Positions 1,358 through 49,717 of a stretch of DNA of 64,000 nucleotides are shown here, in pieces (positions within the stretch are counted from its first letter, which is position 1; the number at the start of each line of letters is the position of its first letter). The stretch is taken from sequence record PQ351811; one strand, written 5' to 3'. This DNA is from Shigella phage SSG23. Below the pieces are notes generated by a model. It ran no database searches and was not told where the DNA came from. It saw nothing but the letters and a program-made list of their open reading frames with translations. Both the position numbers and the translations under genes were made by a program.

Positions 1358-1386
1358 TTGACAGGGGAGGATAACTCCCCTACAAT
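1358..1386 (+). promoter_or_regulatory. PeSL-like early promoter with spacer hairpin
   Basis: ttgaca 1358-1363, palindrome ggggaggataactcccc, tacaat 1381-1386. Confidence 0.65.
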
Positions 1387-1426
1387 ACAACCATCAAGAC
1401 GAGATACCACTTAGGAGAATCAAACA

Positions 1427-1678
1427 ATGGCTAACATCGAAACCGCAAAGAAAATCGCTAAAGACCTGAACGTTAAAGGCTTCCGTAAACTGAAATTACA
1501 GCGTGTACGCTACACCGTCGGCAAACAGTGCTCTTTCATGAGCGAAGAAGTTGCTAACAGCCTCATTGATAACCTTATTGCGGCTGGCTGGGAAGTTGCG
1601 GATCTGAAAACTTGCCGCGAACTGGCTAACAAAGGTCTTTTAGATTCTGTTACTATCAAACCAATGGGGGCAGCGTGA
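1427..1678 (+). CDS. hypothetical early protein (83 aa)
   Basis: ORF behind PeSL-like promoter; SD aggaga. Confidence 0.65.
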   Translation: MANIETAKKIAKDLNVKGFRKLKLQRVRYTVGKQCSFMSEEVANSLIDNLIAAGWEVADLKTCRELANKGLLDSVTIKPMGAA

Positions 1679-1920
1679 AAAGAAAATTAATTAAACGAAA
1701 TAAGGAATTGTTGAATAACTGCATTAAGGACGCTAATGGTTGGCCTTTGTTCCTCTTCCTTTATGATCGACATTCTAAACAATCGGCTGAGGAAGCACGA
1801 CACTATAAGAAGATCAGAAAAGAATCATATACAAAACAAGGACGCATTAACGGAATTTACTTAATGTGGCACGGCAAAGAACCTTCTAAAATCTGTGTTG
1901 GGTTAAAGGGGCGTATATGA
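1675..1920 (+). CDS. hypothetical protein (81 aa), GTG start overlapping upstream stop
   Basis: only a GTG start is available (GTGA overlap), ggggg upstream; basic protein; translationally coupled position. Confidence 0.35.
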   Translation: MKRKLIKRNKELLNNCIKDANGWPLFLFLYDRHSKQSAEEARHYKKIRKESYTKQGRINGIYLMWHGKEPSKICVGLKGRI

Positions 1921-2633
1921 AACAAAAATTAATATTCTGCAACTTTGACGGATCGGGGATAATGGGGCTAGAATGGGCTAAAGCAGGTCATAAGGTGATC
2001 TGCTTTAATGCGGATGACGCCGACCACGGTACATACAAAAAGTATAATACCAGATTTGAACATCCAAACATTACCTATGTAAACACCTGGATTGATTTGA
2101 ACTGGCTGGAAAGAGCAATGGACCTTGAATGGGGGAAACCGGATATTATATTTGCATTCCCACCTTGCACCAATTTAGCTGTTAGTGGCGCTGCACACTT
2201 TGAACGAAAGAAAAGAGAGCAAGGACCATTAATTCAAGTTCATGATGTAAGGGCAGCTAAAATAACAGCTTATTTGGGCGAATGGTTAGGAGTTCCCTAC
2301 ATGATAGAGAATCCTGTAAGCGTTATCTCTAGCATGTGGCGTAAGCCTGATTACATGTTCCACCCGTGGGAATATGGCGGTTATTTGCCGGAAAATGATA
2401 TACATCCTACGTTTCCTGAGTATATTGCCGCCCGTGATATGTACCCGAAAAAGACTTGCTTATGGACCGGACAAGGCTTTATAATGCCAGAAAAGAAACC
2501 GTTGCCGATTAATAAAGGGTACAGTAAACAGCATTCTAAGCTAGGCGGGAAAGGAACCAGAACAAAGACTATCAGGTCACTTACCCCGCGAGGATTCGCA
2601 AAGGCAGTATTTGAAGCCAATAAGGATCTATGA
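1917..2633 (+). CDS. C5-cytosine methyltransferase-like protein (238 aa)
   Basis: motifs in C5-MTase order: FCNFDGSG (motif I-like), FPPCTNLAVSG (PC motif with catalytic Cys), MIENP (ENV-like); short region after the ENV motif. Confidence 0.5.
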   Translation: MKQKLIFCNFDGSGIMGLEWAKAGHKVICFNADDADHGTYKKYNTRFEHPNITYVNTWIDLNWLERAMDLEWGKPDIIFAFPPCTNLAVSGAAHFERKKREQGPLIQVHDVRAAKITAYLGEWLGVPYMIENPVSVISSMWRKPDYMFHPWEYGGYLPENDIHPTFPEYIAARDMYPKKTCLWTGQGFIMPEKKPLPINKGYSKQHSKLGGKGTRTKTIRSLTPRGFAKAVFEANKDL

Positions 2634-2962
2634 TGAGATTGTTTAAGTATTCGCTAACGTCAAATTATGACAAACAAGGTCATTGTATCCGTTGCCCTGA
2701 TTGCCATAGTCATAACATCGAAAGCAAGATCCGTGATCATATTGATGGACTTTGGTCGCCAGCAAGCGAGATAGAATACTATTGCGCTGATTGCGGAATT
2801 GTAGTAGCATATTGGGCATACGGATCATATGATCCCTACTTCCAGATGGGAGAGCGTTCAATCCCTGCGCTTATCTGGAGAATTAAGAACAATATCCGCC
2901 ATTCATGGGATGAGTTCTTAAAAGATATTGATTTACGTGATGATCCATTCAGGAGACTATAA
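2630..2962 (+). CDS. zinc-ribbon protein (110 aa), possibly HNH-like
   Basis: CxxCxxC..H..H then CxxC in translation; ATGA overlap with upstream gene. Confidence 0.55.
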   Translation: MMRLFKYSLTSNYDKQGHCIRCPDCHSHNIESKIRDHIDGLWSPASEIEYYCADCGIVVAYWAYGSYDPYFQMGERSIPALIWRIKNNIRHSWDEFLKDIDLRDDPFRRL

Positions 2963-2963
2963 C

Positions 2964-3482
2964 ATGAACCGTTTGACGCCTAAACGCCGTTACTATACCA
3001 ATACTAAAAACTTTGTCATCTCTGTTTATGAGGCATGGTTAGAAGATGGCTATATCAACATGAACCCAGATTATCAGCGTCCTTTGGTATGGGACACCGA
3101 AAACAAACGTATGTTTATCGAGAACATGATTAATGACTTTCCGGTCGGCGCTATCGCAATGGCTAAGATTGATGATGGCTCTCGCTATGAAATCGAAATC
3201 GTGGACGGCAAACAGCGTTTAAACGCAATATTCTCATTCATGAAGGATGAGTTTAGCATTGCGGGTAATGATGATTCTATGCTGTATTACAGCGATTTTA
3301 CGCCAGCAGAAAAGCGACGTTTCCGCAATCTAGGACTACCAGCGATCATGATGGAAGAGAGCACACGAGAAGATCGATTAGAATATTTCTACAAAACAAA
3401 CTTTTTCGGTGTGCCTCAATCAGAAGATCATCGCCAGCATGTGATTGCCCTATTGCAAGATGAGCAATTAAAAAATAACTAA
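2964..3482 (+). CDS. DUF262 (ParB-like / GmrS N-terminal type) domain protein
   Basis: PDYQRPLVW and IVDGKQRL motifs; start moved to ATG 2964 with SD aggaga 7 nt upstream. Confidence 0.6.
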   Translation: MNRLTPKRRYYTNTKNFVISVYEAWLEDGYINMNPDYQRPLVWDTENKRMFIENMINDFPVGAIAMAKIDDGSRYEIEIVDGKQRLNAIFSFMKDEFSIAGNDDSMLYYSDFTPAEKRRFRNLGLPAIMMEESTREDRLEYFYKTNFFGVPQSEDHRQHVIALLQDEQLKNN

Positions 3483-3489
3483 AAAGTTG

Positions 3490-3519
3490 TTGACAGGGGA
3501 TCATCGATCCCCCTATAAT
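3490..3519 (+). promoter_or_regulatory. PeSL-like early promoter with spacer hairpin
   Basis: ttgaca 3490-3495, palindrome ggggatcatcgatcccc, tataat 3514-3519. Confidence 0.65.
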
Positions 3520-3551
3520 GCACACATACCGAAACGAAAGGAGAATCAAAC

Positions 3552-3737: not shown

Positions 3738-3766
3738 TTGACACGCGATAGGGTGTATAGCATAAT
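3738..3766 (+). promoter_or_regulatory. PeSL-like early promoter
   Basis: ttgaca 3738-3743, cataat 3761-3766, leader tacacccataccgaaaca. Confidence 0.65.
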
Positions 3767-4086: not shown

Positions 4087-6138
4087 ATGTTTAACTTAGA
4101 AATCGACGATCTAATGATTGAATCTTTCGAGAAATGGCTGTTAACGGAAGAGGAAGAAAACTTTGGCAGCATTGCTCCGGTACAGTGCTTAAAGCCTAAA
4201 CAGAATCCAAAACAGCTTTTTGCAGTACAGACACGCGATAAAGATGTAATTGTCCGTCTTTGTAACTTCACCAACAAAACACCTAAAATTATTCGTGTTG
4301 GCGATAAAACCGCACACGTTGTACTGTGTGAAATGAACAAAAGCGGTCGTATTGTACAGCTTAAAAATGGTCTAGGCGATAACCCGATTGCAGTTATGGC
4401 AAGTGCTTTTGATGTGGTTATGGAAACAGCCCGTAAAGCGCAATTAGATGCTGTTATGTTCCGTTTTAACGTGTCCCGCATGAAAGGTAAAACCGAACTG
4501 GTTAAACGCGTTATAGAGCGTTTAGTGCGTCGTACTCCTAAGTTTGAAGTATTCCAGCAGGAAGTAATGACCAGCAAAAAGATCGCTTTGGTTGTTGTCA
4601 AGCGTCGCGGGATGGCGATTGATAAGATTAAAGGGATTAAACTTGATGAATCCTTGTTCACTAAAGTAGAAAGTGATTTAGGTGATCGCTGGGTATCTAA
4701 GGCTACTGGTGAATCTCTGACTAAAGATGAGGCGTATGCGGCTAGTCTTGTGTCGGAAGAAGAACGAAACGCGGAAGCAGAACAACGCGTAGCGGCTAAA
4801 TCTCGTTTGACTAAAGAAGAAATGCTGAAAACTCAAGCGACCTATAACGGTGATTATGTTAATCATCCAGAAAAAATTAACCTTAAACCGGAAGAGGATA
4901 TTACCGAAGCCGAACCTAAGAAACAGTTTAATACTCTGATCGATCGTCAAGCCTTAGAACGTTCAACCGCCCGTTCTTTGAATGATTGGACAAATGATAT
5001 TATCACTCGCTATGGTTTCATGCGTACTATTTTTGAAAGCGAAGCCGATGCAAAATACGCAGTAAGCGAACTGGTAAAAGTTCAGGATCAATATGATCCG
5101 TTGTCTGCGGAAGTTATCGCAGCATCAATCAAACGCTTAAAAGAAATCATGAATGAAGAAGTGTTTGAAAACAAGATCACCGCCCTAGCAATGGATCGCG
5201 TCGACCAGTCTATGCCAGCAGATGTAAAAGCTGAAATGCTGCGTAGTCACATCACGCAGATTAAAACCGATGCCCTACGTAATGTTGCTTCCGGTATGTT
5301 TGAAGCGATTGCAAGTAACATGGGTGAAATGATGGCAGATATTGATCTTGACCTGCCTGGCGCGGAAGGTTTTGTGTTGAGCGAATATGCGGATGCAGCA
5401 TACATCAATATGAACAACTTCCTAACCGACCGTAAGTTGGAAGAGTTTGACGGTATTGCAGACCCAGAAGAATTGGTCAAGATGTGTGATGCACTGGATA
5501 ATGCCTTCGCTAACTATGGTGTTAAACTTGATCCAGGTACTATCTTGTATCGTGGTATGGACTTCCGTTCTCAAATGTGGGAAACTGCACGTAAGCAAAA
5601 AGCGTTTTACTTTAAAAACTATGTAAGCACTTCCCTTGCACCTAATATTTTTGGTGGCTGGAATGCAAACGTGGCTAGTGCCGTTGCTGGTGTTGATTCT
5701 ATGGCGGGATCTCGCGGTGAAGGTGGCGCTAATGTTGCTTTCTCCATTGCTGGCGCGGAAAACATCCCTGTATTGCCAGTAGGTAACAAAGCATTTGCGT
5801 ACAAAGAATGCGAGATTTTACTTCCTCGCGGTGTTGTGTTATCCTTTGATACGGTAACTCGTGCTACGGCATCGACGGATTCACAAGAAACTTATTACAT
5901 TGAGGCACATATTATGAACAAAAATGAACTGGCAGCATTACAAGAATCTGGTGAGATGATCGCGGACGGTGATGCATTCATCCGTGAAGGTGTTGTTAAA
6001 CCTGCTTCTGACCTGTCTTTCTCCAGCTTCATTACCGAAGCTAAAACCGAACGTAAGAAAGCAGATAAGGCAACTCTACGTCAGCTTATCGCTGATCTGG
6101 TATCTGTAGACGCTATGCCAGATAAATTTAAAATGTAA
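4087..6138 (+). CDS. alt: Alt-like ADP-ribosyltransferase (683 aa)
   Basis: R-S-ExE motifs (YRGMDFR, YVSTSLAP, ECEILLPRG); T4 Alt is about this size; lies next to gene 54 as in T4. Confidence 0.8.
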   Translation: MFNLEIDDLMIESFEKWLLTEEEENFGSIAPVQCLKPKQNPKQLFAVQTRDKDVIVRLCNFTNKTPKIIRVGDKTAHVVLCEMNKSGRIVQLKNGLGDNPIAVMASAFDVVMETARKAQLDAVMFRFNVSRMKGKTELVKRVIERLVRRTPKFEVFQQEVMTSKKIALVVVKRRGMAIDKIKGIKLDESLFTKVESDLGDRWVSKATGESLTKDEAYAASLVSEEERNAEAEQRVAAKSRLTKEEMLKTQATYNGDYVNHPEKINLKPEEDITEAEPKKQFNTLIDRQALERSTARSLNDWTNDIITRYGFMRTIFESEADAKYAVSELVKVQDQYDPLSAEVIAASIKRLKEIMNEEVFENKITALAMDRVDQSMPADVKAEMLRSHITQIKTDALRNVASGMFEAIASNMGEMMADIDLDLPGAEGFVLSEYADAAYINMNNFLTDRKLEEFDGIADPEELVKMCDALDNAFANYGVKLDPGTILYRGMDFRSQMWETARKQKAFYFKNYVSTSLAPNIFGGWNANVASAVAGVDSMAGSRGEGGANVAFSIAGAENIPVLPVGNKAFAYKECEILLPRGVVLSFDTVTRATASTDSQETYYIEAHIMNKNELAALQESGEMIADGDAFIREGVVKPASDLSFSSFITEAKTERKKADKATLRQLIADLVSVDAMPDKFKM

Positions 6139-6216: not shown

Positions 6217-7041
6217 ATGTTCAAGAAATTACAGGATTTTCGCCTTTCAGAAGAATCACGCGAATCAATGATGGAACGTATGGATAATTACATCGAAACA
6301 TATGGCATTGAGGGGATTAATGGTTACATGATCACTGAAATGATCAGCGATCATATTAACTTTGATGATTACGTGAAAGTTATCCGTTTCCTTGAGCGCG
6401 AGACGCAAGATTATGGATTTGTCAAGAAGATCATTAATGTTATGTACGAAGTGCAATCCGAAGACTTTGGAGACAGTGTATTCAAGCATTATGGTCATAC
6501 CAATCTTACACCAGCAGAATATAATGCAATCTGTGATTATGTGTCTGAACAATACGAATGGGTAAATGGTGCTCTCTTAGGGGAAGAAGACATGACCGAC
6601 GAGATATCAGAAATTGTTGATTTGATGGATTGCGTCATGGATAAAACCGAAAAGTTAAACGGTACTCTTTATCGCGGTCAACATCTTGACATTCAGACAA
6701 TAGAGCGTATTATTGAAGATAAGGAATTTACATTTAAAAACTTTGTATCGACCAGCATGACACCGATCATCTTTGGAGGCTGGCTTTCAAACAGCACTAG
6801 CCTTTATTGTGAGAATCGATATGAATCAATGACCGGAAAGATGCAACATTCTTGTAATGTATCATGGGTAATTGACGTAAAAGATCATAAAGGTTTTGTT
6901 GTTGGGTCAATTGCATGGAATCCTTGCGAATGTGAAGTAATTTTACCGCGCGGGACTTGCATCAAGGTAAACGACGTAGTAGAATCTTTCGGCGATGAGA
7001 ATCGTAGACAATTTACAATTTTCGGTGAGGTGACTAAATGA
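6217..7041 (+). CDS. second ADP-ribosyltransferase, short Alt/Mod-like paralogue (274 aa)
   Basis: R-S-ExE motifs (LYRGQHLD, FVSTSMTP, ECEVILPRG); SD gggagg. Confidence 0.7.
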   Translation: MFKKLQDFRLSEESRESMMERMDNYIETYGIEGINGYMITEMISDHINFDDYVKVIRFLERETQDYGFVKKIINVMYEVQSEDFGDSVFKHYGHTNLTPAEYNAICDYVSEQYEWVNGALLGEEDMTDEISEIVDLMDCVMDKTEKLNGTLYRGQHLDIQTIERIIEDKEFTFKNFVSTSMTPIIFGGWLSNSTSLYCENRYESMTGKMQHSCNVSWVIDVKDHKGFVVGSIAWNPCECEVILPRGTCIKVNDVVESFGDENRRQFTIFGEVTK

Positions 7042-7523
7042 AAATGGTTAAACTGATTGGTCTTGCGGCTGCATTCATGCTTACTGGTTGTGCTAACATG
7101 GAAGCTATGATGAATGCTAAATCAGATCCGGTTTTCTTGCTTCGTGAATGTAAAGCAGCATATGCAAGCGATGATCAGATCGAATCATGCTTTATTTCTA
7201 AAATGGAACGTCGAGACGTGGATCGCGTTAAAGTTGGTTTAGCACCACAAACGCAGATGTTCAAAGATGCAATCAAAGAAGCGCGGGAAGAGAAAGCACG
7301 AGAAGAAAAGAAGCGTCAAGAAGAATTGCGCAAGCAACAAGAAGAGTCTATACAACTTGAGAAGATGAAAGCAAGGGATCGTTGTATTATCATGTCTGAC
7401 ATGCAGATAGAACAAGAAGCTAGAAAGGCAGCATTGAACGGTGATTATGACCGTTATGAAGAACTTAACAGCGCAGAGTTTCAAGCTAAGGCACTAAAAT
7501 ATTGCAATGATTTAGCAAAATAA
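7038..7523 (+). CDS. lipoprotein with charged coiled-coil region (161 aa)
   Basis: signal peptide with lipobox LTGC; KEAREEKAREEKKRQEELRKQQEE tract; ATGA overlap with upstream gene. Confidence 0.6.
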   Translation: MKMVKLIGLAAAFMLTGCANMEAMMNAKSDPVFLLRECKAAYASDDQIESCFISKMERRDVDRVKVGLAPQTQMFKDAIKEAREEKAREEKKRQEELRKQQEESIQLEKMKARDRCIIMSDMQIEQEARKAALNGDYDRYEELNSAEFQAKALKYCNDLAK

Positions 7524-48303: not shown

Positions 48304-49143
48304 TTAAATGTCAAACAAGTCTGAGAGCGTCCCAGACGCTGTTTCTTGTTCTGGTAAGGTAATCTCCTTACTTTCTTCTATTTGTTCGTTAGGACGCGAT
48401 TTAGGCGCTTCTACGGCTTCTTTCTCGTAATACCTAACCTCAACCACTTCTGTTAAAACGTTGGTACTGTGCCATTCATCGCGATAGATTGATGTATCGA
48501 TCCCACATCCGGCATAAGTCACCAAACCAGTTTGTTTGCTCCATTTTAGATATTTATTAGACTTCATTGTTCCGTCATAATAAGGTCTACCGGAATAAGC
48601 AAAACCAGCAGAACCAGCAGGAACAATAAAGTAACCAACATCAGCAAACTTCTGGCCTAATGTCATAACCTTAAATTCAAACTCACCGCCAGTATATTCA
48701 AATACATCCTTTGTGTCGGTTGTATTGATTTTCCCGAAAGGTGGATTGCTAATTACAACATCAAATTTTTCGTTTGATTCAAATTCGAATACATCGCTGG
48801 TGATCCATTCTGCTTCCGGTAATAGTCGTTTACCGATCCGCGCAAATTCTGGATTGAGTTCGACGCATACGATCTTTTCTGGCTTACAACGATGCAACAT
48901 ACAGAAAGATAAACGACCGATCCCAGCACACAAATCTAATACTTTTCCGGTGCAGTGTGCGTCAATGGTAAAATCCCATGCAAGACCCTCTGGAGTAAAG
49001 AATGCACCGGAACCACCTAGACCATCTCCATGATAGTTATTATAGCAAAACTCCTTTTCTTCATATGTCAATGGGCGATCTGAATTGATTAGCTCCATTG
49101 CCCGATCGTGTAATTTTTGTTCTTGTTTGGAAAGTCGTGCCAT
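48304..49143 (-). CDS. SAM-dependent amino-methyltransferase, HsdM/gamma-class N6-MTase-like core (279 aa)
   Basis: FFTP, then VLDLCAGIGRL (motif I), then VISNPPFG (motif IV), in gamma-class order; no obvious target-recognition domain. Confidence 0.65.
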   Translation of the reverse strand: MARLSKQEQKLHDRAMELINSDRPLTYEEKEFCYNNYHGDGLGGSGAFFTPEGLAWDFTIDAHCTGKVLDLCAGIGRLSFCMLHRCKPEKIVCVELNPEFARIGKRLLPEAEWITSDVFEFESNEKFDVVISNPPFGKINTTDTKDVFEYTGGEFEFKVMTLGQKFADVGYFIVPAGSAGFAYSGRPYYDGTMKSNKYLKWSKQTGLVTYAGCGIDTSIYRDEWHSTNVLTEVVEVRYYEKEAVEAPKSRPNEQIEESKEITLPEQETASGTLSDLFDI

Positions 49144-49472
49144 TATTTAACCTTTGCTGTTACGGTAACGCTATGCCCCAAATAAACATGAGACATAAAG
49201 AACACAAAGTTTTTAAATTGCGGATTCTTTCGAATAAACCGTTTCAATTTTCGAATACAAGTAATGCTATGGTCATAATTAGAGTAATTAAATTTGATAC
49301 CCTGTTCCATCATCACATTAACTTCATCTTGAGAATGCCACTTCTTATCATGGTCACAAAACCAATAGTTATCATGCCATTTTTCTTGAAGATGCAAGCC
49401 CCAAAACACTTTATACATTGGATGTTTTGGTTTACCCATTGTGTAATGCAGTTTAATATTTACGCGTGCCAT
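49143..49472 (-). CDS. hypothetical His/Trp-rich protein (109 aa)
   Basis: ATG start; stop overlaps the MTase start. Confidence 0.5.
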   Translation of the reverse strand: MARVNIKLHYTMGKPKHPMYKVFWGLHLQEKWHDNYWFCDHDKKWHSQDEVNVMMEQGIKFNYSNYDHSITCIRKLKRFIRKNPQFKNFVFFMSHVYLGHSVTVTAKVK

Positions 49473-49717
49473 TTTCTATCACTCCACATACCGAAAGTTG
49501 GATTATACACAAAATGTATAGCTTCATCAATAGTCTTGAATCGTTTAGTTACGTTAGCGCAATTGATACCCTCCCATAGTTCATCGGTGTAATCGGCTAG
49601 TGATGAATGAGTATGATCGATGAGTTCCCCGATCTTCTCACCGTTCGCGATCACCTCCCAACCGCAAGGGGATACCTGAATTGCTTCACAATTATCTGTA
49701 AATTTACGACGTGCCAT
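49460..49717 (-). CDS. hypothetical protein (85 aa), first gene of the cassette
   Basis: ATG with SD ggagg; sigma70-type promoter upstream. Confidence 0.55.
   Translation of the reverse strand: MARRKFTDNCEAIQVSPCGWEVIANGEKIGELIDHTHSSLADYTDELWEGINCANVTKRFKTIDEAIHFVYNPTFGMWSDRKWHA

Follow-up and report, generated by a model that had tools for sequence, protein, structure and literature searches.

The 64,000-nucleotide stretch of Shigella phage SSG23 analyzed here (sequence record PQ351811; hereafter the window) contains a unit of early genes at 1358–3482 that encodes a 238-residue DNA (cytosine-5) methyltransferase (C5-MTase), a 110-residue zinc-ribbon protein, a 172-residue DUF262 protein, and two smaller proteins. 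We read this unit as part of a hyperplastic accessory region in a Krischvirus (RB49/Phi1 group), bounded by promoters with an embedded G/C stem-loop (PeSLs) and holding five independent accessory genes, with the 238-residue protein as an active member of a family of short phage C5-MTases. We give this joint reading a probability of about 0.7. The original prediction, made from the letters of the window, had named the three larger genes and suggested that they could act together in DNA modification or counter-defense. The open reading frames (ORFs) and the motifs that it quoted are all present, and matches to PHROGs (E = 1e-33 to 6e-91 across the unit) and low ratios of nonsynonymous to synonymous substitution rates (dN/dS) identify them as real genes. 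The ratios were computed against Phi1 and TB34, that is, within the genus Krischvirus, and values of 0.04–0.09 for the MTase, zinc-ribbon, and DUF262 genes indicate purifying selection.

A short phage cytosine-5 methyltransferase

The 238-residue protein carries FCNFDGSG at residues 7–14, FPPCTNLAVSG at 81–91, and MIENP at 129–133. In an alignment of 38 family members, Gly-12, Ser-13, and Gly-14 of motif I (FxGxG, present as FDGSG at 10–14) are near-invariant. Pro-82, Pro-83, Cys-84, and Thr-85 of motif IV are invariant, and so are Glu-131, Asn-132, and Pro-133, which form an ENP variant of motif VI. The C-terminal IRSLTPRG is almost invariant, and the stretch 141–200 is very conserved. The protein has the fold of a C5-MTase catalytic domain, predicted to be DNMT3-like, and its second-best structural match is a C5-carboxymethyltransferase. 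The dN/dS of the gene is 0.08–0.09.

A profile search of NCBIfam gave no match to the protein, and a sequence search of the Protein Data Bank (PDB) gave 0 hits. PHROGs places it in phrog_757, "DNA methyltransferase" (E = 6e-91). Its family comprises more than 7,000 clusters of 225–260 residues, with 1,177 representatives (50% identity) at E ≤ 0.001, and tblastn locates members in 1,522 phage records, which include T1-like, rV5-like, Kagunavirus, Dhillonvirus, Webervirus, and other phages. Among the records are 39 labeled "Campylobacter phage" (including MG065648, MG065679, and MG065669), whose 35–50-kb genomes carry Dcm-like genes 46–63% identical to the coliphage gene; such similarity being unexpected, their hosts may be mislabeled.

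One relative has been studied experimentally. Phage K42, with a genome 95.4% identical to that of KarlJaspers (Bas06), has a 711-bp "Dcm-like" gene that triggers retron Ec86 (bioRxiv 10.1101/2023.08.16.553469). 5-Methylcytosine (5mC) made by K42 Dcm was detected on multicopy single-stranded DNA (msDNA) by LC-MS (liquid chromatography coupled to mass spectrometry), the retron defense needs the CCWGG motif of the msDNA, and a C82A/E128A/K175A/K176A mutant is inactive (bioRxiv 10.1101/2023.08.16.553469). The product of the 711-bp KarlJaspers gene is 55% identical to the 238-residue protein (E = 4e-91, residues 1–235 against 1–234), and the residues mutated in the K42 enzyme, which is near-identical to that of KarlJaspers, align with Cys-84, Glu-131, Lys-178, and Lys-179. 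The C5-MTase fold and motifs named in the original prediction are thus upheld by conserved PPCT, ENP, and FxGSG, by the fold, and by homology to K42/KarlJaspers Dcm. The protein thus belongs to this experimentally anchored family, whose members are short DNA (cytosine-5) methylases of phages.

As the original prediction had noted, there is little room for a target-recognition domain (TRD). The core and the C-terminal helices are separated by only about 70 residues (145–215), mostly in loops; these are highly conserved and so probably act as a minimal TRD. The small region is not the oddity it had seemed, because the phage family that shares it is large and has an experimentally active member; it is the norm for the short enzymes and resembles that of DNMT3.

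In the mechanism that we propose, Cys-84 of the PPC motif would attack C6 of the target cytosine and Glu-131 of the ENP motif would contact the base. The compact, loop-rich region around 145–215, including Lys-178 and Lys-179, would stand in for a large TRD, as in DNMT3. By homology, the enzyme would most likely methylate CCWGG on replicating phage DNA, a specificity suggested by the conservation of the TRD-like stretch. Methylation of this kind would shield progeny from EcoRII-type enzymes, dcm-minus hosts included, and its cost would be the triggering of retron Ec86. For the genes of the unit, the analysis shows fold, homology, motif conservation, operon structure, purifying selection, and distribution; enzymatic activity, CCWGG specificity, and an anti-restriction role are what we infer for the Krischvirus ortholog, and any function of the zinc-ribbon and DUF262 proteins is likewise a proposal.

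A stand-alone DUF262 protein

The 172-residue protein carries PDYQRPLVW and IVDGKQRL and matches Pfam PF03235 (GmrSD_N) with E = 1e-19 and 71.9 bits, above the cutoff of 33.2. The domain has a ParB/Srx fold and is structurally closest to ParB-N and BrxU. Motifs I (QR), II (DGxQR), and III (FxxxN), reportedly as defined by Machnicka et al. in 2015, characterize the nucleotide-binding core of DUF262 and are all intact, and the DUF262 identity proposed from the letters stands. Among 40 sequences, Gln-38, Arg-39, Asp-81, Gly-82, Gln-84, and Arg-85 are invariant, and Lys-83, Phe-142, and Asn-146 are near-invariant. The gene starts at ATG 2964 behind an AGGAGA Shine-Dalgarno sequence, not at the upstream TTG 2928, and has a dN/dS of 0.04–0.05. 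No DUF1524 or HNH profile matches the protein, which ends at residue 172, or the neighboring genes, as expected from the missing nuclease half that had been pointed out. A PDB sequence search gave chance-level matches only, the best PADLOC matches are to the N-terminal parts of NsnA and PD-T4-2_A, and a literature search found no paper on phage-encoded stand-alone DUF262 proteins.

A single-sequence word-index query returned 2 proteins only, but a family profile built from tblastn-derived homologs matched 574 clusters at E ≤ 0.001. The best 120 of these 574 matches are 107–214 residues long, mostly about 160–190, and come from phages and enterobacterial chromosomes; the family is found in 301 phage records. 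The protein is predicted to be a complete stand-alone ParB/Srx-type DUF262 domain, not a fragment of a GmrSD enzyme, in a distinct phage and prophage family of about 170 residues. It would most likely act as an NTP-dependent switch or as an enzyme on DNA or on a partner protein.

In a Salmonella prophage (L013, 1159–11246), a DUF262 gene lies in a lambdoid/Rac-like early-left accessory operon, where it follows, in this order, genes for KilR, RecE, RecT, and a 77-residue ORF. After a gap past the DUF262 gene, this prophage has a gene for Nmad5 ("nucleotide modification associated domain 5"), followed by xis/int.

A four-cysteine zinc ribbon

The 110-residue protein carries CIRCPDC...CADCG and matches the Pfam family Zn_Ribbon_TF (TFIIB-type) with E = 4e-4 and 20.3 bits, below the cutoff of 29. 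In an alignment with four diverged homologs, Cys-21, Cys-24, Cys-51, and Cys-54 (numbered from ATG 2633) are invariant, within RCPxC and CxxC, and make up two CxxC knuckles; part of a YWAYGxYDP tail is invariant too. None of His-26, His-28, Asn-29, and His-37 is conserved in these homologs. The original prediction had left the choice between a zinc ribbon and a degenerate HNH domain. The invariant CxxC pairs favor the former, and the HNH remnant was rejected because only the four cysteines are conserved and the histidines and the asparagine are not; nor does any HNH profile match. We regard the protein as a plain, ordinary small zinc ribbon, in which the four cysteines would have a structural role. 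A PDB sequence search with the protein gave nothing useful.

The gene has a dN/dS of 0.06–0.08, and homologs occur in 91 phage records. The Krischvirus set accounts for 56 of these, at ≥95% identity, and the remainder comes mainly from siphoviruses, 9g-like and others, with a podovirus in addition. Elsewhere the homologs adjoin genes for primase/helicase, DNA polymerase, exonuclease, or terminase.

The early transcription unit

The 2.7 kb around the cluster are 99.7% identical to Shigella phage SFHK24 and 95–96% identical to about 55 other Krischvirus genomes, including RB49, Phi1, JSE, TB34, and SAP. The genes correspond to Phi1 ORF190, 189.1, 189, 188, and 187, and alt lies immediately downstream. 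The G+C content is about 40% throughout. Because one PeSL lies at 1358–1386, where the stem-loop between the hexamers is seen in TTGACAGGGGAGGATAACTCCCCTACAAT, and the next at 3490–3519, we conclude that the five genes form one early transcription unit (Table 1). RB49 and Phi1 have such PeSL (promoter-early stem-loop) cassettes in their hyperplastic regions, as reported earlier (PMC2839356, PMC4122927). The near-consensus sigma-70 promoters that bound the unit justify the label "early." Within it the genes are joined by GTGA, ATGA, and ATGATGA overlaps and one 1-nucleotide gap, in keeping with the tight, translational coupling that had been claimed. The original prediction was correct about the ORFs themselves, but position 1675, where it began the cluster, is the start of a fourth gene of 81 residues that it had passed over. 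This gene has a dN/dS of 0.27–0.42, and the 83-residue ORF before it 0.09–0.17.

Table 1. Genes and promoters of the early unit (window coordinates)
Feature	Position	Strand	Characteristics
Short phage Dcm-type DNA (cytosine-5) methyltransferase, predicted, 238 residues; Phi1 ORF189	1917..2633	+	Cys84 in PPC, Glu131 in ENP, Lys178/179
Four-Cys zinc-ribbon protein, predicted, 110 residues (109 from ATG 2633); Phi1 ORF188	2630..2962	+	phrog_2993, E = 1e-33
Stand-alone DUF262 protein (GmrSD_N, ParB/Srx fold), predicted, 172 residues; Phi1 ORF187	2964..3482	+	YQR 37-39, DGKQR 81-85, F142xxxN146
PeSL at start of unit: early promoter of sigma-70 type, G/C stem-loop embedded	1358..1386	+	TTGACA-17-TACAAT, 11/12 match
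Early ORF of 83 residues, first in unit; Phi1 ORF190 homolog	1427..1678	+	phrog_14908, E = 1e-58; annotated in Phi1 and SFHK24
ORF of 81 residues; Phi1 ORF189.1 homolog	1675..1920	+	phrog_7065, E = 2.5e-36; GTG start overlapping preceding stop
Next PeSL promoter/stem-loop, end of unit and start of next small-ORF cassette	3490..3519	+	TTGACA-18-TATAAT, 12/12; TTGACAGGGGATCATCGATCCCCCTATAAT

Six near-consensus sigma-70 promoters (11–12/12) precede small ORFs on the + strand, at 411–439, 757–785, 1114–1142, 1358–1386, 3490–3519, and 3738–3766. In the three that were read, at 1358, 3490, and 3738, a stem-loop lies between the −35 and −10 hexamers, different in each; this is the PeSL architecture of RB49 and Phi1.

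Two tandem ADP-ribosyltransferase genes directly follow the cluster on the + strand, one for an Alt-like protein of 683 residues (4087–6138) and one for a paralog-like protein of 274 residues (6217–7041; phrog_15144). An ORF of 161 residues (7038–7523, +) overlaps the stop codon of the second. Its N terminus, MKMVKLIGLAAAFMLTGC, is lipoprotein signal-like and is followed by a charged, coiled coil-like region, so that it may be an envelope-targeted accessory protein.

Distribution of the three genes

The numbers of records inside and outside Krischvirus differ from gene to gene, at 1,522 for Dcm, 91 for the zinc ribbon, and 301 for DUF262. Among phages named "Escherichia," 576 have a Dcm gene and 55 a DUF262 gene, the latter nearly all Krischvirus. 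Outside the genus, RB43, the Salmonella prophages, and CcrColossus carry the DUF262 gene, PTXU04 and KarlJaspers the Dcm gene, and JenK1 and phages of Proteus, Cronobacter, and Klebsiella the zinc-ribbon gene, in each case with the other two not nearby. In the non-Krischvirus loci examined, no zinc-ribbon homolog stands beside a Dcm or a DUF262 gene. RB43 ORF183c, PTXU04 gp65 and gp67, and the ORFs flanking DUF262 in Mydovirus and Henunavirus were considered as diverged homologs of the zinc ribbon or the 81-residue protein and were rejected, as they show no similarity.

The genes are thus neighbors only in Krischvirus, and we take this as no evidence that they work together. With distributions that differ and no adjacency of the three genes in any non-Krischvirus locus examined, the modification or counter-defense module put forward in the original prediction is left without comparative support.

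Modification state of Krischvirus DNA

HpaII and NheI cut the DNA of RB49, which is regarded as unmodified. HPLC-MS of TB34 revealed no modified nucleoside (PMC13390438). Full methylation of CCWGG would mark 0.21% of the cytosines in the window, and such sparse marking fits the unmodified appearance of RB49 and TB34 DNA.

Against the 28 CCWGG sites in the window, dinucleotide shuffling gives 56±7 and a Markov estimate gives about 82. Other sites are also rare: GAATTC and CTGCAG are absent (about 20 and 7 expected), RCCGGY occurs once (about 34 expected), GGCC 26 times (about 79), and CCSGG 18 times (about 41). GATC, with 393 occurrences where about 343 are expected, shows no avoidance. Avoidance of type II sites classically marks DNA that has been exposed to type II restriction. 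We did not use the CCWGG depletion for or against Dcm activity, since it is shared by many other palindromes.

A second, unrelated DNA MTase of 279 residues is encoded at 48304–49143 (−), with DLCAGIGRL and NPPF motifs and Pfam matches to MTS (E = 1e-9) and an Eco57I-type family (E = 2e-6). It is inserted between baseplate-wedge genes, together with small ORFs at 49143–49472 (−) and 49460–49717 (−). A phage regarded as unmodified therefore encodes two DNA methyltransferases.

Hydroxymethylcytosine (hmC) and α-glucosyl-hmC were reported in 2026 for phage SAP, which is 99.96% identical to TB34, and no known pathway genes for them are present in Krischvirus (PMC13390438). Over the 3.7 kb that we compared, the coding sequences of the SAP and TB34 clusters are identical. 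The only differences, all outside the three genes, are a 79-bp tandem duplication and two single-base indels. We conclude that the cluster does not explain the report of hmC in SAP, and it was rejected as the cause of the difference in cytosine modification between the two phages. The duplication is a perfect tandem copy of the PeSL after the DUF262 gene (2571–2649 in the SAP locus L003, against 2570 in the TB34 locus L004; window ~3476–3551). It creates an annotated ORF of 38 residues, SAP_052, and encodes no enzyme. The SNP-based comparison in PMC13390438 may have missed it, and it is unlikely to be the cause of the reported hmC. When the SAP/TB34 PeSL sequence was searched in the window, no match was found at ≤3 mismatches; the stems of the window PeSLs differ.

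Alternative explanations

Several observations weigh against the reading of five independent genes with an active CCWGG methylase. Pfam PF00145 matches the 238-residue protein with 14.0 bits, below the cutoff of 22, and over residues 10–100 only, so that the profile check proposed earlier yields a match but a subthreshold one. The assignment as a C5-MTase holds nevertheless because of the fold and the full-length homology to a characterized enzyme. The Krischvirus enzyme and its KarlJaspers ortholog differ at 45% of residues, and the specificity of K42 Dcm comes from one msDNA site and LC-MS, with no genome-wide methylome (bioRxiv 10.1101/2023.08.16.553469). Strong avoidance of CCWGG is unexpected if the phage itself fully protected these sites; the reason could be deamination of 5mC or incomplete methylation. 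Every Krischvirus examined has the three genes in a single operon. Finally, two genera of Vequintavirinae carry the DUF262 gene downstream of an NPPY-type MTase gene, at a distance of about 1 kb and with two conserved small ORFs in between (Klebsiella phage VLCpiM5b, Mydovirus, L009 806–3013; Erwinia phage Hena1, Henunavirus, L010 903–3016). We rejected this linkage as a conserved Dcm-DUF262 pair and did not count it as such, because the NPPY enzyme and the Dcm family are unrelated; that DUF262 and DNA methylation are functionally linked is possible but unsupported. At the Mydovirus and Henunavirus loci, a gene for tRNA nucleotidyltransferase is found further downstream.

It is unlikely, in our judgment, that the genes form a joint modification and counter-defense module, in which Dcm marks DNA with 5mC and the DUF262 protein, as a decoy or a dominant-negative partner, disables 5mC-cutting nucleases of the GmrSD or BrxU type. 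The genes do overlap in one operon that is kept together in about 56 Krischvirus genomes, but most Dcm phages have no DUF262 gene (1,522 against 301 records; 576 against 55 for "Escherichia" phages), and no MTase is found near the DUF262 homologs of RB43, prophages, and CcrColossus. The structural closeness of the DUF262 domain to ParB-N and BrxU agrees with such a module, as does the situation on the host side, where a nuclease-less GmrS paralog works with its GmrSD partner and is needed by it, so that DUF262-DUF262 partnerships are real. On the other hand, a passive decoy would have no need of the nucleotide-binding motifs, which are invariant, and the best 120 family matches are all short (107–214 residues), so that nothing points to a GmrSD N terminus copied recently from a host. 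BrxU is reported to cut 5mC DNA, yet TB34, which bears the cluster, is not restricted by BrxU; 5mC on only about 0.2% of cytosines could alone explain this insensitivity. A decoy role for the DUF262 protein is somewhat disfavored. A related idea, that stand-alone DUF262 proteins of about 170 residues are a class of NTP-dependent phage effectors, possibly inhibiting or hijacking host GmrSD, BrxU, or SspE nucleases by domain pairing and shielding 5mC-marked Krischvirus progeny, likewise strikes us as a long shot.

Still less probable is that the DUF262 protein would generally assist phage DNA methyltransferases as an accessory factor with a DNA-targeting or regulatory role. The analogy is with the ParB-like domains fused to DNA methylases in phages. 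DUF262 does have the ParB/Srx fold, and its gene is found one gene away from a Dcm-type MTase in Krischvirus and two small genes away from an NPPY-type amino-methyltransferase in VLCpiM5b and Hena1, but these MTases belong to unrelated classes. No MTase lies within 2.5–6 kb in RB43, the Salmonella prophages, and CcrColossus, and the ORFs of the S.Typ Adana locus, which is unannotated, include none. DUF262 is missing from most of the 1,522 records with Dcm. Expressed from a plasmid in the absence of other phage genes, K42 Dcm gave 5mC, and the KarlJaspers Dcm has no annotated DUF262 neighbor.

We consider it very unlikely that a pathway of cytosine hypermodification, leading to the hmC and glucosyl-hmC reported for SAP, has its entry point in the C5-MTase-like enzyme. 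The missing pathway genes and the second-best structural match to a C5-carboxymethyltransferase would suit this proposal, but unmodified TB34 carries the identical coding sequence, the characterized K42 ortholog makes plain 5mC, the SFHK24 annotation overlapping the window includes no dioxygenase or glycosyltransferase, and the strong avoidance of type II sites in the window is typical of unmodified DNA. Hardly credible, and already largely refuted by residue conservation, is a split GmrSD-like nuclease against co-infecting hmC phages, made up of the zinc protein as a degenerate HNH domain and the DUF262 protein: the two genes follow one another at a 1-nucleotide gap and the CxxC-H-x-HN...H...CxxC pattern in the window is superficially HNH-like, but only RCPxC...CxxC is invariant in diverged homologs, where the H, H, N, and H positions become Gly, Ser, Thr, Glu, Gln, and others, no HNH or DUF1524 profile matches, elsewhere no zinc-ribbon homolog adjoins DUF262, and the genes upstream of the DUF262 homologs examined are unrelated.

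Implications

Under the preferred reading of five independent accessory genes, the 238-residue gene is a new member of an already characterized kind, the DUF262 family is well defined, and the counter-defense module is a minority view. The label "C-5 cytosine methylase" on phage genes of 230–240 residues is probably right despite their failing the Pfam threshold, and about 1,500 phage genes have a single characterized member, K42 Dcm, as their anchor. Sparse 5mC is probably present in the DNA of Krischvirus phages, which are usually called unmodified, as well as the mark of a second amino-methyltransferase, and on hosts with retron Ec86 the Dcm gene is likely to be a liability. The stand-alone phage DUF262 family is compact, widespread, strongly constrained, and cheap to test. 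For the report of hmC in SAP, the cluster can be excluded as the cause.

Comparison with known systems

The closest known system is the Dcm of K42 and KarlJaspers (Bas06), which resembles the SSG23 protein in family, length (236 against 238 residues), catalytic cysteine, ENP glutamate, lysine pair, and DNMT3-like predicted fold. The gene neighbors differ, and the phage is a T1-like siphovirus there and a T4-like myovirus here. Methylation and retron triggering were shown for K42.

In comparison with the canonical PF00145 enzymes M.HhaI and E. coli Dcm, the 238-residue protein is about 90–230 residues shorter. Canonical C5-MTases have a discrete TRD and a GN(A/S)V motif at the C terminus, whereas here about 70 loop residues separate the catalytic core from the C-terminal helix, and the C-terminal motif is SLTPRG. 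The catalytic domains of DNMT3A and DNMT3B are only 13–17% identical to the phage protein; the eukaryotic enzyme uses regulatory domains and partners and has CpG specificity, in contrast to the presumed CCWGG specificity of the phage enzyme.

Enzymes of the GmrSD family (GmrSD, BrxU, and SspE) have about 560–600 residues with a nuclease half. The 172-residue protein, in contrast, has no DUF1524 or HNH part, either of its own or in its neighbors, and the short DUF262 proteins are a separate conserved family of phages and prophages. The unit as a whole compares with the PeSL cassettes of RB49 and Phi1. Five genes stand between two PeSLs here instead of a single ORFan, and as in those cassettes the unit, which matches the ORF187–ORF190 region of Phi1, is flanked by strong sigma-70-like promoters with G/C stem-loops.

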